Source: a virus
IMG/VR virus record: IMGVR_UViG_3300047353_000337
Location: 1-64,000 of that record
Reading direction: 5' to 3' (one strand)
Length of the DNA: 64,000 bases
Position numbers and translations under genes: made by a program. Below, in pieces: positions 1 through 63,239 of the stretch. The notes below the pieces were generated by a model, which worked only from the letters and a program-made list of their open reading frames with translations, searched no databases and was not told the origin of the DNA. The stretch's first letter is position 1, and every line of letters begins with the position of its first letter.

Positions 1-433
1 TACGCTCAAACTACTTACACTTCGTTTTGATTAAAGTAATAGATATGAATTAAAGCAATATTACGTAGTAATATTGTAATTGCTTCATGTAGATTGTTTC
101 AGTCAGACGGAACCTACTACGGTTCCATCTAATCTCAAAGTTTGCACTTCATGTGAGTTCGTCACAGCCGAGATTCGGAAGTAGGTGTTTTCACTGTTCA
201 ATGGGCTCTGACCTTTCCCAACCTACGTCGACATCGCTTACGCTACCTCTCGCTTCGTTCCTGTTGCTAAAGAGTTTTTATGAACATTGTGGTTCTTGAC
301 TAACAGCAACTAGCCTATATTGATCGTTATGGTTCGTATGAATCAATATGTTTCGTGTGTGGTTCTCACGCCACCCTTTACACAGCGGAATTATCTATCT
401 GGCCCGCTATCCTTATGTGCTGTATTGATTTGC
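1..433 (-). ncRNA. Candidate large structured non-coding RNA downstream of the GIY-YIG gene (3' end may run beyond the window edge)
   Basis: No ORF. Inverted repeats at 56-64/68-76, 103-114/121-132, 152-156/162-166, 168-171/175-178, 181-186/221-226 enclosing 202-205/217-220, 263-269/304-310, 317-325/341-349, 359-362/371-374 and 383-388/404-409. Plus-strand C.A mismatches in these stems become G.U wobbles on the minus strand. Family not recognised. Confidence 0.65.
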
Positions 434-856
434 CTATATATTTTGTAAGTGTTCTTTTAGAATTTTTGATCCACCAACTCTAACATTAATAATACCATTA
501 TAGTATTCATCTGTTTCGAGTACTCTGCGTTCAAACTGTTCTCGTGCCTCTAAGTAACTTGCAATGCCTCTGCTTGGACAATAATGTAATATTTCTCTAG
601 TAAAGTTATCTTCGCCTAGTTGTTCAACGTCTGCGTTAAGTCTATCACTAGATCCCCAATAAGTTTGCCAGTCACTTTCTTTTGTTCCACGTCTTTTGTT
701 TTTTTTGCCTTTTAGCGGGGGCTTTGTTGTCTTGAATTTTGCTAGTTTTTTGCCTACGTACTTCATGCCATTGACTTTATTTGTTATCAAGTAGACAAAT
801 GCTTCAACGCCTTCAGGCATTTCTTTCACTTTTTTACCTTGATAAGTCCATTGCAT
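434..856 (-). CDS. Stand-alone GIY-YIG family endonuclease (catalytic domain only)
   Basis: FVYLITN...KYVGKK (GIY-YIG signature), DWQTYWGSS, conserved Glu (LEAREQ) and YYN; 140 aa with no C-terminal DNA-binding module. Confidence 0.8.
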   Translation of the reverse strand: MQWTYQGKKVKEMPEGVEAFVYLITNKVNGMKYVGKKLAKFKTTKPPLKGKKNKRRGTKESDWQTYWGSSDRLNADVEQLGEDNFTREILHYCPSRGIASYLEAREQFERRVLETDEYYNGIINVRVGGSKILKEHLQNI

Positions 857-861
857 ATTGG

Positions 862-867
862 TACTTA
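862..867 (-). promoter_or_regulatory. Putative late promoter TAAGTA, 5 nt upstream of the GIY-YIG ATG
   Basis: Minus strand reads GGTAAGTACCAATATG; variant of the T4-type late motif TATAAATA; no Shine-Dalgarno. Confidence 0.45.
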
Positions 868-874
868 CCGTTGC

Positions 875-1075
875 CTATGATTCTGGGGCCTCGTTCTTGG
901 AATTATGCTTGTGATGTATCTCGTCCATACGTTCTTTTGCTAGTGATCGTATCTCACGTAACCACTTTCTGCTCTCACGATGCGTTCGTACAGAGTTACG
1001 AGCCTCAAACTTTTCGTTTGCCTTAAAGTATGCCATATATGCCTTAGTCAATTTATCGTGTGTATCGTCATTCAT
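875..1075 (-). CDS. Small basic helical protein, possibly histone-H1/Hc1-like nucleic-acid-binding phage protein
   Basis: 66 aa; YFKANEKFE...RESRKWLREIRSLAKERMDEI pattern; start overlaps the gp46 stop. Confidence 0.5.
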   Translation of the reverse strand: MNDDTHDKLTKAYMAYFKANEKFEARNSVRTHRESRKWLREIRSLAKERMDEIHHKHNSKNEAPES

Positions 1076-2843
1076 TGTGTATTTCTACATCGTTCTCATA
1101 TGATGTAAAGCCATTTTCCTTTATAACCTTAAGAACGTGTGTTACTCTTCCTACTAATTCATCTTTATGGGATATAAGATAAACATTCTTCTGTCTTTCT
1201 CTACCCATCTTCTTCAAAATACCTAAAGAGTTTTCAACTCCGCTAGTATCCATTCCGCTATCAATCAACTCATCAATAAACAATAAGTTGATATTCTGAT
1301 ATAAACTTTCCCAAACATCTCTAAATGCAAAACTCATACCAAGTATAAGTCTATTACGCTCGCCCCTACTTAAATTATCAAAGTCTAGGTCTTGTCCTAG
1401 TTGTGTAATCTCAACTGACAAGTCATTTTGGAATACAACACTATGTGGTAATCCAAGTTTGTCAAGATAATTTGTAAGTCTGTTGTTTAGGTATGCTAAG
1501 TTTTGATCAATAATTTTCTTACGAATAAAACTATCTTTGTTTGTTAATAGTTTTAACATAAAGTCTTGATGTTCTTTTAGACTTGTCAAATTGTTTACAG
1601 TGTCCCAGTTAATTTCTTGGATAGCACTATTGTTTAATTCATCAATTTGTTCTTGATACGGATCAATTTCAGTTTTAGAACGATCAAGTGCTTCTTGTAA
1701 TTGTGCTACGTTTTGTTTATGATCATATACTTCTTTAATAGTTTCATAGAACGCTGTAGGCTTACCATTAATATCACCAATGTCAGTAAGAGACTTTGTT
1801 ACATCTATAACTTTATCACTTACTTCTGTTTGATATGCTATTGCATCTTCAAGTTCTTTATTCTTTTTAACTGCTAGTTCTTCTTTTTTCTCATCATGTA
1901 GCTCTTGACCACATGTATGACATGTACCTTGATCTAAGTTTTCTGCATCTTTTTGTGCTTTTTCAACACTTCTATCTGCACGTACTAATGCTGGCTCTAA
2001 TGTGCTTAACTCTTTTTTAAGAGCCAAAATAGCATTATTTTTTTCTTCCCAAGTAGATAGTTTTTCGTGTTTATCTAGTTCATCTTCTACATCTAAATGT
2101 TCTAATTCGTCAATTGAGCGTTCTAGTTTAGCAATGTCTTCTTTTTGTTTTGTATTCCAAGCACTTTGTTTTGTTTGCAAACTACGTACAGTTTCACCAA
2201 TACGTGTATTACTAGTTTCAATAGCATTAATACGAGCCGTTTCGTCTGTAATTGCTTCTTTAGTTTGTCTTACTTTTTCTTTAAGTACTTCTGCCTTTTC
2301 AGACAATATTGTAATACCAAGTAATTGTTCAATAATATCTTTTTGATCATTAACTCGCATACTTAAGAACGGTTCTGTGTATGTGTTTAGTGCAACAATA
2401 TGCTTAAACATATTATGCGACATACCTAATAGATGTATAATGTCTTCTTGCGTTTTACGTGAATCGCCTTGCGACTCATCTAGCATTTCTTGCTCTTGAC
2501 CGTCTACATAAAACTTTAATAAGTTAGGACCACGTCCTCTTTCAATCTTATAATCACGCCCATCTTTTTCAAAAGACAGCGTAACTAACATACCTTTGTT
2601 GTTAGTTTTATTAATTAAATTATTGCGTTTAATATTTGTTAAAGCAAGCCCGTATAAGGCATAACTTAATGCATTAATAATAGTAGTCTTACCTGTACCG
2701 TTACGTGATCCGCTATCATCGCCACCTTGGTCAAGGTTTTCTCCTAGCACAAGTGTTAGTTGTTGTTTATCAAAATCAACTGCTTGGGTCTGATTGCCCA
2801 CACTCATGAAGTTCTTTACGGTTAAACTTTTTATTTTAATCAT
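1068..2843 (-). CDS. gp46: Recombination endonuclease ATPase subunit (T4 gp46 / SbcC / Rad50-like)
   Basis: Walker A NGTGKTT, coiled coils, zinc hook CHTCG, signature LSRGE, Walker B FIDELID, H-loop ISH. Confidence 0.93.
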   Translation of the reverse strand: MIKIKSLTVKNFMSVGNQTQAVDFDKQQLTLVLGENLDQGGDDSGSRNGTGKTTIINALSYALYGLALTNIKRNNLINKTNNKGMLVTLSFEKDGRDYKIERGRGPNLLKFYVDGQEQEMLDESQGDSRKTQEDIIHLLGMSHNMFKHIVALNTYTEPFLSMRVNDQKDIIEQLLGITILSEKAEVLKEKVRQTKEAITDETARINAIETSNTRIGETVRSLQTKQSAWNTKQKEDIAKLERSIDELEHLDVEDELDKHEKLSTWEEKNNAILALKKELSTLEPALVRADRSVEKAQKDAENLDQGTCHTCGQELHDEKKEELAVKKNKELEDAIAYQTEVSDKVIDVTKSLTDIGDINGKPTAFYETIKEVYDHKQNVAQLQEALDRSKTEIDPYQEQIDELNNSAIQEINWDTVNNLTSLKEHQDFMLKLLTNKDSFIRKKIIDQNLAYLNNRLTNYLDKLGLPHSVVFQNDLSVEITQLGQDLDFDNLSRGERNRLILGMSFAFRDVWESLYQNINLLFIDELIDSGMDTSGVENSLGILKKMGRERQKNVYLISHKDELVGRVTHVLKVIKENGFTSYENDVEIHNE

Positions 2844-52999: not shown

Positions 53000-53240
53000 A
53001 CATTTAAATGAAGCAAAAACAAAAGCTGGCAAACCTACAGCAGGTTATTGGTGGCATTTTGGTTTGGCAATAAAAGAATTCTTTTTCCTATTACTAGTTT
53101 GTATAGGAAGTTTAATTCATGCAGTTTTTCCTTGGGTACTTGATTTTAAATTATTAGAATGGAGAATCAATAGATTAAAAAAACTTAAGAAACAACTGCC
53201 TGATGACCCCCAACTACAAAAGGTACATTTTGATGACTAA
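52977..53240 (+). CDS. Small membrane protein (DUF6356-like)
   Basis: HL......Y..HF..A + hydrophobic helix + IHAVFPW. Confidence 0.55.
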   Translation: MSTWLNPKHLNEAKTKAGKPTAGYWWHFGLAIKEFFFLLLVCIGSLIHAVFPWVLDFKLLEWRINRLKKLKKQLPDDPQLQKVHFDD

Positions 53241-62872: not shown

Positions 62873-62899
62873 GTAATGCTCCTAATTCATTGTTACATG

Positions 62900-62907
62900 T
62901 ATTTATA
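62900..62907 (-). promoter_or_regulatory. T4-type late promoter TATAAATA for the minus-strand fibre gene
   Basis: Exact consensus, followed by AGGAG RBS and ATG 62872. Confidence 0.65.
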
Positions 62908-62924
62908 TCAAAACTACGATATCT

Positions 62925-63239
62925 CTACTTTTTCTTTTTAGTAGGATTCTTTAAAAATGCTCTAGTTTGCTTTTGAACATCACGTTTTACCTTTGTTGTA
63001 TTTAATCTAAAGTCTACATGCACAATATCATCGCCGTATTCGTTAAACAAATCGGCGATAGTGTCGTCTAAATTTGCGCCTGTACTACGTTTAGCATTAC
63101 AATCTATCTCCCATATTTTACCTTTTTTAAACTCGATACGTATCGAATGAAGATAATTTATGGGTATAGTCTGTATATCTATATCTCTAAAAACTTCAGG
63201 CCAGTGTTTAATTACATCATCAGGTAGTGGCTTTGGCAC
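62925..63239 (-). CDS. Hypothetical protein
   Basis: Likely GTG start at 63239 (PKPLPDDVIKHWPEVF...), which avoids a long overlap with the upstream gene. Confidence 0.6.
   Translation of the reverse strand: MPKPLPDDVIKHWPEVFRDIDIQTIPINYLHSIRIEFKKGKIWEIDCNAKRSTGANLDDTIADLFNEYGDDIVHVDFRLNTTKVKRDVQKQTRAFLKNPTKKKK

Follow-up and report, generated by a model that had tools for sequence, protein, structure and literature searches.

A structured non-coding RNA beside a SegE-like GIY-YIG nuclease gene in uncultured marine phages

The window analysed in this study, a stretch of 64,000 nucleotides (nt) of viral DNA, takes in the opening 64 kb of a viral contig of 72,813 bp (IMG/VR record IMGVR_UViG_3300047353_000337), base 1 being the contig end. 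Positions 1-433 of the window, read on the minus strand, would make up most of a stand-alone, compactly folded non-coding RNA gene of ~470 nt, which lies directly downstream of a gene for a 140-amino-acid (aa) SegE-like nuclease of the GIY-YIG type. In the reading that we favour, with a probability of roughly 0.55, this is an independent new RNA gene whose 5′ flank collects homing-type nuclease genes, the SegE-like GIY-YIG gene being nearly fixed there. This reading is favoured because the RNA stands without the nuclease and the protein family without the RNA, because nucleases of different kinds gather at the flank, because the nuclease gene appears able to move on its own, and because the RNA can have its own promoter. 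An earlier note, made from the sequence alone, had described a structured RNA beside a nuclease and proposed that the two form a ribonucleoprotein with the RNA as scaffold or guide; the first part is borne out by the present analysis and the second is not.

The RNA comprises a four-helix 5′ domain, a doubly pseudoknotted core and a 3′ part with two twin elements (r1 and r2), each placed before a hairpin, and ends in a GNRA-capped hairpin followed by a terminal hairpin. RNA and nuclease would be neighbours rather than one machine, with free-standing homing-type nuclease genes settling and persisting at the 5′ flank of the RNA gene, and the RNA would arise through transcription that continues past the nuclease gene (likely in the window) or that starts at a sigma-70-type promoter of the RNA's own (in some relatives). 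We infer that the RNA acts in trans and that a single complementary partner, either host-encoded or located elsewhere in the phage genome, reads both twin elements.

Fold and conservation of the RNA

The DNA downstream of the nuclease gene was conserved in many relatives, with invariant blocks split by hairpins that change on both sides. In a near relative (L005, gp46 95% identical), the element measures ~470 nt from the nuclease stop codon to its end, where a GNRA-capped hairpin is succeeded by a terminal hairpin that covaries, and is followed by a convergent gene. Because the window begins at base 1 of the contig, the gap 1-433 is truncated, and the window copy would be short of roughly the last 35 nt of the RNA. 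Only scattered open reading frames (ORFs) of at most 48 aa, none of them conserved, were present in 1-433.

Pairs of a core model spanning window positions 81-296 were counted on 81 non-identical homologues. Pairing was seen in 93.3% of 3322 cells, compared with 31.8-43.2% when the 3′ partners were slid by 1-3 columns. Alteration on both sides was seen in 22/43 pairs of the model, with such pairs in every helix from A to F, and 300 doubly changed cells were counted against 84.7 ± 11.1 in shuffles, none of the 500 shuffles reaching 300. For the 5′ domain, RNAalifold on 45 sequences showed compensatory changes in 17 of 24 pairs, which brings the overall figure to 39 of 67 tested pairs. At least twelve helices, two of which are pseudoknots, are thus backed by homologue comparison, and the conserved covarying structure that the earlier note had advised looking for downstream of homologues was found. 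Across the cells of the core model, G.U and U.G pairs outnumbered A.C and C.A combinations by 269 to 54 on the strand of the nuclease gene, indicating that the RNA is read from that strand and agreeing with the earlier description of stems carrying G.U pairs on the gene's strand. Folded singly, the window sequence did only modestly better than shuffled versions of itself, with z-scores of -2.06 (minus strand) and -0.64 (plus strand).

The earlier note had also suggested that the gap could be a replication-origin region. Such a DNA-level element (replication origin, recombination site), or else a decayed gene, would fit the 5′ leader, in which 1-5 AGGCA repeats can be seen by eye (~9-10 nt apart in some relatives), the presence of r1 and r2 as direct repeats resembling crossover sites, and the GC content of 1-433, which exceeds that of the adjoining genes. 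However, compensation in more than half of the tested pairs, together with G.U pairs five times as frequent as A.C on one strand, reflects constraint at the level of RNA, and no reading frame was conserved, which leaves this alternative scarcely credible.

A covariance model of the RNA (R1) matched the window once (81-297 on the minus strand, 223.6 bits), and five records of 104-176 kb likewise gave one match apiece. Comparison with Rfam 15 brought up no family for the window, for five exception loci, for seven sister loci or for L005, the last even at E ≤ 10, the sole match overall being a chance microRNA match with an E-value of 0.8; the Rfam check proposed in the earlier note therefore returned no known family for this RNA. 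ARAGORN predicted no transfer RNA (tRNA) or transfer-messenger RNA (tmRNA) genes in the window and 23 loci, on which ground tRNA, tmRNA and permuted tmRNA were rejected as candidates, and a blastn search of the RNA against 50,697 phage records produced no match. A pseudoknot resembling P4 of RNase P (GGTCAGA with TCTGACT), noticed by eye, was also rejected, since distant homologues alter the first strand while the second remains fixed, and since the second strand serves hairpin I. The pairing of GTAGGT with ATCTAC returned by RNAalifold was discarded because compensatory changes favour ACCTAC as the partner (L033, L117, and GCAGGT/ACCTGC variants).

Positions of all helices and elements are collected in Table 1. 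Hairpin I varies mostly via G.U, with one pair doubly changed, and the T1 pairs 201-205 with 213-217 showed 2 to 6 double changes in 20 sequences. Helix K, which is only 80% paired, may have an alternative in a local hairpin, CCAA-GTC-TTGG. In relatives, a covarying terminal hairpin follows the tail hairpin; compensatory variants of the tail hairpin (GAGTG..AACGA, GAACG..AGTGA) were recognised by eye.

Table 1. Position of the RNA, its parts and the adjoining genes in the window
Feature	Position	Strand	Basis or remark
Structured non-coding RNA, 5′ ~92% of ~470-nt gene	1..433	-	3′ end lost at contig end
5′ domain, helices P1-P4	303..423	-	RNAalifold, 45 sequences
P1	423-418 with 308-303	-	5′ domain
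P2	409-404 with 388-383	-	5′ domain
P3	374-371 with 362-359	-	5′ domain
P4	348-340 with 326-318	-	5′ domain
Doubly pseudoknotted core, helices A-F	181..285	-	Pair counts on 81 sequences; invariant single-stranded blocks
Helix A	285-281 with 200-196	-	90% paired; pseudoknot, crosses E
Helix B	274-266 with 253-247	-	87-98% paired; invariant loop AGGAACGAAG at 262-253
Helix C	245-234	-	GNRA-capped; 92% paired
Helix D	229-227 with 212-210	-	99% paired; pseudoknot, crosses E and F
Helix E	226-221 with 186-181	-	99.6% paired
Helix F	220-217 with 205-202	-	97% paired
r1, first twin element ACTCACATGAAG	147..158	-	Between strands of weak helix K
Helix K, weak	173-168 with 138-133	-	80% paired
Hairpin I, 10-bp stem between twin elements	105..130	-	96% paired
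r2, second twin element ATCTACATGAAG	83..94	-	Matches r1
Hairpin T1, directly 3′ of r2	54..82	-	RNAalifold pairs 201-205 with 213-217
Start of GNRA-capped tail hairpin GTTTGAGCG-NN-AGCGAAAAC	1..11	-	Cut by contig end
140-aa SegE-type GIY-YIG nuclease gene, phrog_447 family, catalytic domain only	434..856	-	ATG-started ORF
Conserved 66-aa ORF, function unassigned	875..1075	-	Between gp46 and nuclease gene, i.e. upstream context

The RNA family appears to be new, specific to uncultured marine phages and part of a wider group of sister RNAs at the same locus. Full-text literature searches listed no paper describing the RNA or an RNA-associated GIY-YIG protein, although the RNA may be listed, unnamed, in PMC10690425, which mined IMG/VR for >10,000 candidate structured RNAs.

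The nuclease, its link to the RNA and the genomic setting

The 140-aa protein matched the Pfam family SegE_GIY-YIG (PF19835), which is named after SegE, with an E-value of 9.9e-34 and 116.7 bits against a cut-off of 25, residues 3-123 being aligned to positions 1-123 of the 123-position profile; a scan of the virus's own genome agreed. No second domain, including a separate DNA-binding domain, was found by Pfam. As the match takes up residues 3-123 of 140, the protein is essentially a catalytic domain only, just as the earlier note had it. The phrog_447 family was matched over its full length (E = 1.5e-37), and homologues measured 137-154 aa. Invariant across 30 homologues were the FVY (20-22) and YVG (33-35) motifs and residues Y22, Y33, G35, R87, E103 and N120. 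Catalytic roles of the GIY and YIG motifs and of the Arg, Glu and Asn residues have been described for I-TevI, and the nuclease, with its catalytic residues intact, is active-looking. Its AlphaFold2 model was confident (pLDDT 86.8). The top fold match in PDB, the catalytic domain of I-TevI (1LN0), was not significant (E = 0.28, probability 0.66, TM scores 0.35/0.50); a restriction enzyme of GIY-YIG type was also among the best matches, none of which reached E ≤ 0.001, and no PDB sequence matched the protein sequence. The Lys/Arg-rich stretch pointed out in the earlier note is indeed present and nearly invariant among homologues; since it lies inside a continuous Pfam match, it belongs to SegE-type domains in general and is no special insertion of this protein.

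A total of 783 cultured phage records carry relatives of the nuclease with 30-44% identity. Phrog_447 relatives at NC_015280.1 157848-158333, at NC_005282.1 70861-71361 and in a large number of cyanophage records are labelled 'NAD synthetase'. Given the GIY-YIG match, this label looks wrong, and the present analysis corrects what is a misleading annotation of the protein family in GenBank.

Co-occurrence was assessed from both sides. On the protein side, at least 599 relatives of the nuclease were present in IMG/VR, and 80 loci were kept. For the RNA, IMG/VR was scanned with a pattern made of two of its invariant blocks, and at least 119 contigs were found to have the core motif, which makes the RNA abundant in marine viromes; the matches listed gave 118 new loci, 101 of them with ≥800 nt upstream, and overlap with the protein-derived contigs. 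Among these matches listed, a same-strand GIY-YIG gene ended 257-696 nt before the motif in 91 of the 101 RNA loci, and two further loci (L160 and L172) had it further off, behind an inserted ORF. From the protein side, family-1 RNA was held by 35/80 loci, five of which are cut by contig ends, and 55 of the 65 loci with ≥450 nt downstream fell into three blastn clusters. We read these clusters as window-type RNA and sister RNAs, most of them on inspection only; for one sister cluster, 95 pairs were predicted, with 28 compensated in 8 sequences.

Sister RNAs (400-650 nt after the GIY-YIG stop codon, beyond R1) were observed in L046, L039, L051, L052, L069 and L022, with further loci in L045, L047, L060, L077, L031, L040, L050 and L067, in L026, L059 and L081, and in L017 and L023. 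By eye, they have in common with the window's RNA a hairpin placed between identical twin 6-8-mers, a tail hairpin with a GNRA cap and, in the 5′ leader, 1-5 copies of AGGCA.

The link between RNA and nuclease is, however, not obligate. The RNA was present with no GIY-YIG gene in the locus in L084/L097 (94 bits with R1) and L169/L202 (158 bits), and with none nearby in L163. The record to which L084 belongs (G006, 30,115 bp, CheckV completeness 100%) contained the RNA at 94 bits and no match to either PF19835 or PF01541. The RNA of G006, situated close to a weak match to a terminase small subunit, is divergent, with CATCAA as its twin elements. The place of the GIY-YIG gene is taken in L149 by a PDDEXK_15 endonuclease (PF24608, E = 1.1e-25; 1517-2071 on the minus strand) of the PD-(D/E)XK type, and in L160 an ORF of the phrog_314 homing endonuclease family (E = 2.5e-16; 1380-2012, minus strand) stands between the GIY-YIG gene and the RNA, on the opposite strand to them.

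Conversely, the protein family occurs without the RNA. Methylophilales phage Melnitz encodes a 75% identical relative after its ribonucleotide reductase genes, with only 148 nt before the next ORF downstream and no R1 match. In L019, L020, L027 and L038, a 79-83% identical nuclease gene, in the absence of gp46, is directly followed by an ORF of ~130 aa, again with no RNA, and the copies in P-HM1 and FelixO1 sit in gene-dense regions with no R1 match. RNA without nuclease and protein family without RNA were the two observations that the earlier note had named beforehand as speaking against its own proposal.

These observations bear most directly on a GIY-YIG ribonucleoprotein, in which the RNA would supply the domain-only nuclease with a scaffold or specificity, r1 and r2 serving as short target-pairing addresses. 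Such a complex would be in line with the frequent co-occurrence seen from either side and in three distinct arrangements, with a nuclease devoid of any DNA-binding domain and under strong purifying selection, and with the lack of a terminator-like site between gene and RNA in the window. Against it stand the RNA found without any GIY-YIG gene, including in a record rated complete, the wide occurrence of the protein family without RNA, the other nuclease families occupying the same flank, and the fact that a 77-85% identical protein adjoins RNA families that have diverged beyond recognition by blastn; the Lys/Arg-rich stretch, being a part of the Pfam domain family-wide, lends it no help either. 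We consider the ribonucleoprotein distinctly unlikely.

The evolutionary rates of the nuclease gene and of gp46 were also compared. Relative to the window's copy, nuclease genes had non-synonymous divergence (dN) of 0.05-0.20 at synonymous divergence (dS) from 0.4 to saturation, while dN of gp46 in the same pairs reached 0.42. Low dN at high dS indicates that the nuclease is old in these phages and strongly constrained, and its dS was mostly as saturated as that of gp46. One pair was incongruent: between L004 and the window, dS was 0.50 for the nuclease and 1.75 for gp46, suggesting that the nuclease gene has passed between lineages.

Movement of RNA and nuclease as one mobile cassette was weighed as well. 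The nuclease would then be the homing engine, and the RNA either its cargo (a ribozyme or self-processing, intron-like element) or a marker or immuniser of the homing site, much as the T4 mobA nuclease goes together with the bypass insert of gene 60. Inversion of the GIY-YIG-RNA pair as a unit, its reversed order in another phage backbone, the occurrence of the RNA in at least four genomic contexts and the many contigs that break within it are all compatible with a cassette; GNRA-capped hairpins and pseudoknots are typical of ribozymes, and direct repeats flanking a hairpin recall the take-off and landing sites of T4. Nevertheless, there is no interrupted host gene and there are no exons, no Rfam intron or ribozyme model matched even at E ≤ 10, no ORF runs through r1 or r2, whose spacing varies regardless of codon phase, and the nuclease gene also appears to move without the RNA; moreover, no spliced or skipped r1-r2 form was seen, in metatranscriptome contigs with no read cover of those bases. 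A cassette is therefore unlikely, and is the best placed of the alternatives.

No promoter-like or terminator-like site separating the nuclease gene from the RNA was detected in the window. A sigma-70-type promoter was predicted between the nuclease stop codon and the RNA in L023 (12/12 consensus) and just past the nuclease stop codon in L014 (11/12). Eighteen studies of marine environments or seawater had runs with near-identical sequence, and six of these runs were metatranscriptome libraries. Contigs from four metatranscriptome libraries covered ~185-1290 and bridged the nuclease stop codon, with 1-184 uncovered, with strand, ends, level and RNA origin not readable from them and with DNA carry-over possible. 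They are compatible with co-transcription of the nuclease gene and the RNA.

Bridging contigs, the absence of a terminator-like site, the RNA's abutting the stop codon and its two repeated modules could also be accommodated by a 3′ element acting in cis (an untranslated region that stabilises or limits the nuclease mRNA) or by an RNA antidote for the nuclease, similar to a type III antitoxin. Such roles are highly improbable, given that the RNA exists without the nuclease gene, with its own promoter, and upstream of that gene in L083 and L147, that ~470 nt with pseudoknots far exceeds the needs of an untranslated region, and that most protein relatives have no such RNA. The independent late non-coding RNA listed as an alternative in the earlier note comes closest to the evidence as far as independence is concerned, own promoters being predicted in some relatives; 'late' is not indicated.

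Several observations weigh against an independent RNA gene with a nuclease-collecting flank. The upstream same-strand GIY-YIG gene in 93 of the 101 RNA loci is a tighter association than simple synteny predicts. The nuclease was found in 93/95 gp46-context loci among the matches listed, and no 'empty' site with gp46, the 66-aa ORF and the RNA was seen in these 95 loci. In L060, L068, L076 and L077, the pair as a whole is inverted with respect to gp46, and in L083 and L147, in another genomic context, the RNA comes first and is followed by a 47-50% identical GIY-YIG gene. The nuclease is intact in all loci seen, under strong purifying selection and more conserved than gp46. A homing gene that is wholly selfish would not usually be so constrained, which hints that the phage benefits from the nuclease. 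The protein has no DNA-binding domain that would account for its specificity, and its cleavage site, its homing and the transcript ends are putative.

The minus strand of the window carries gp55-, gp47- and gp46-like genes, then the 66-aa ORF and the nuclease gene. The 66-aa ORF, present in most loci with 36-100% identity by tblastn, had no family match in Pfam or PHROG. No other ORF-poor stretch in the window is as long as 1-433 (divided in the tally by a spurious ORF of 48 aa), as the earlier note had reported for a gap of at least 433 nt. The runner-up stretches without an ORF of ≥45 aa, 62873-63219 (347 nt) and 53000-53202 (203 nt), produced neither an Rfam match at gathering score nor an R1 match.

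Completeness of the window's contig was estimated at 20% by CheckV, and at 20-49% for this contig and records G001-G005 (73-176 kb) taken together, which suggests a genome of roughly 350 kb; backbones carrying the RNA therefore range from a 30-kb genome to these incomplete records. The best gp46 matches among cultured phages were jumbo Pseudomonas phages at 47.6% identity, the nearest cultured phages thus being below 48%. Contigs ending within or just past the RNA included the window's own and L002, L003, L011, L012, L016, L018, L037 and L063; such assembly breaks probably arise from the invariant blocks common to co-occurring phage strains.

Among 185,579 species genomes, the RNA pattern had seven matches, three of them attributable to chance, as expected since the pattern has only 19 bases, and four located on phage-like contigs in two metagenome-assembled genomes (MAGs). 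A cellular origin of the RNA was rejected, all non-chance matches being on phage-like contigs. L200 and L202 belong to one Crocinitomicaceae MAG, L205 and L206 to one Marinimicrobia MAG. One MAG has both GIY-YIG-linked and GIY-YIG-less copies of the RNA, which could mean that a single phage has the RNA twice or that two phages are present, or could be a pointer to the host.

Twin elements of the 3′ part

The twin elements r1 and r2 appear to be 12-nt single-stranded elements, each preceding a hairpin. At their variable motif CAT-N-A-N, r1 was identical to r2 in 110 of 111 sequences despite the existence of six variants. A tree of 108 cores, built without the r columns, needed at least 10-11 state changes with r1 equal to r2 in 107/108 tips; the alignment behind this tree is short and the count of 10-11 may be inflated, and with six variants at least five changes are needed in any case. 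In sister family 3, the corresponding 7-mers were identical in 8/8 sequences across five variants, and the same concerted identity was seen by eye in other sister families.

A partner in cis was looked for, and no column complementary to the A/T/G position was found within -480..+230. Small ORFs starting from an AUG in r1 and r2, a repeating 'endless' ORF and a translational hop were tried as explanations and rejected, as neither frames nor spacing are conserved and some variants have AUA or AUC instead. No reverse transcriptase (PF00078) was detected in the window's contig, in five further records (104-176 kb) or in G006, of which only the last is not a fragment. Identity covariation of this kind is expected if one complementary partner or nascent strand pairs at both sites. 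No explanation was found for the concerted change of r1 and r2, in which identity and not complementarity is maintained.

Free variation of r1 and r2 with no GIY-YIG residue tracking it (highest mutual information 0.29 of 0.82 bits) is guide-like behaviour and as such a point in favour of the ribonucleoprotein discussed above. However, variation is confined to 2-3 positions within the twin 6-8-mers, all other variable parts being stem extensions, so that a variable segment, suggested as a search target in the earlier note, is absent at guide length. Nor was the 72.8-kb contig enriched for r or its complement (4 and 6 occurrences seen, compared with 9.0 ± 2.9 and 5.6 ± 2.2 expected). A related and bolder proposal, which we regard as very doubtful, is a programmable RNA with twin addresses that a single complementary strand would read, be it a nascent copy or the DNA or RNA of a target, with the nuclease as its partner in phages of the gp46 locus. 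If true, it would amount to RNA-directed nicking or RNA-marked homing and to the first RNA-directed GIY-YIG system, with another partner replacing the nuclease in the RNA-only phages. Covariation of identity from site to site points to a definable mechanism that can be tested at the bench.

Relation to known systems

Few large and intricate RNAs are known from bacteria and phages, and those that were solved have opened new biology; HEARO, for instance, proved to be the guide RNA of IscB. The locus described here is in addition a hotspot at which nuclease genes accumulate beside an RNA gene. In this respect it resembles the Seg proteins of T4, and SegB in the tRNA gene cluster in particular, which are likewise intergenic GIY-YIG genes beside genes of conserved structured RNAs, and it shares with Seg endonucleases the signs of separate horizontal movement and the presence of other nuclease families at the same site. 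Unlike Seg proteins, the window's 140-aa protein has no C-terminal DNA-binding domain and, far from being sporadic, is strongly conserved and close to fixation within its clade, and in place of the tRNA neighbours of SegB there is a single RNA of ~470 nt.

Phage group I introns, such as T4 td with I-TevI, also join a GIY-YIG nuclease to a large pseudoknotted RNA with GNRA loops. The present RNA differs from them in having no exons or interrupted gene and no match to an Rfam 15 model even at E ≤ 10, in that the ORF lies upstream of the RNA and not within it, and in a helix order that does not fit P3-P9. As with HEARO/IscB omegaRNA and TnpB reRNA, a large structured RNA and the gene of a small nuclease adjoin each other on one strand and co-occur often. 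Unlike in those systems, the nuclease fold is GIY-YIG rather than RuvC/HNH, no variable end of guide length is present (no variable segment of a dozen or more bases beside the scaffold, as in IscB and TnpB guides), no transposon ends were seen, RNA and protein each occur alone, and the HEARO model of Rfam gave no match.

The RNA also has features in common with GOLLD, ROOL, OLE and raiA, which are likewise large RNAs with many covarying helices and pseudoknots, a link to phages and a history of discovery by comparative genomics. It does not match these families, which are held in Rfam, in sequence or structure, and to our knowledge concerted twin elements are no described feature of any of them. 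For the twin elements themselves, the closest comparisons are systems in which one complementary strand reads a pair of identical direct repeats: TRS-L and TRS-B of coronaviruses, retroviral R, the template ends of telomerase and DRT, and the take-off and landing codons of T4 gene 60. The window's RNA departs from these in that neither a polymerase nor a reverse transcriptase was found, PF00078 being absent from the seven records searched, and that no reading frame extends across r1 and r2; what it shares with all of them is that identity rather than complementarity is kept between two sites and that these flank a structured segment.

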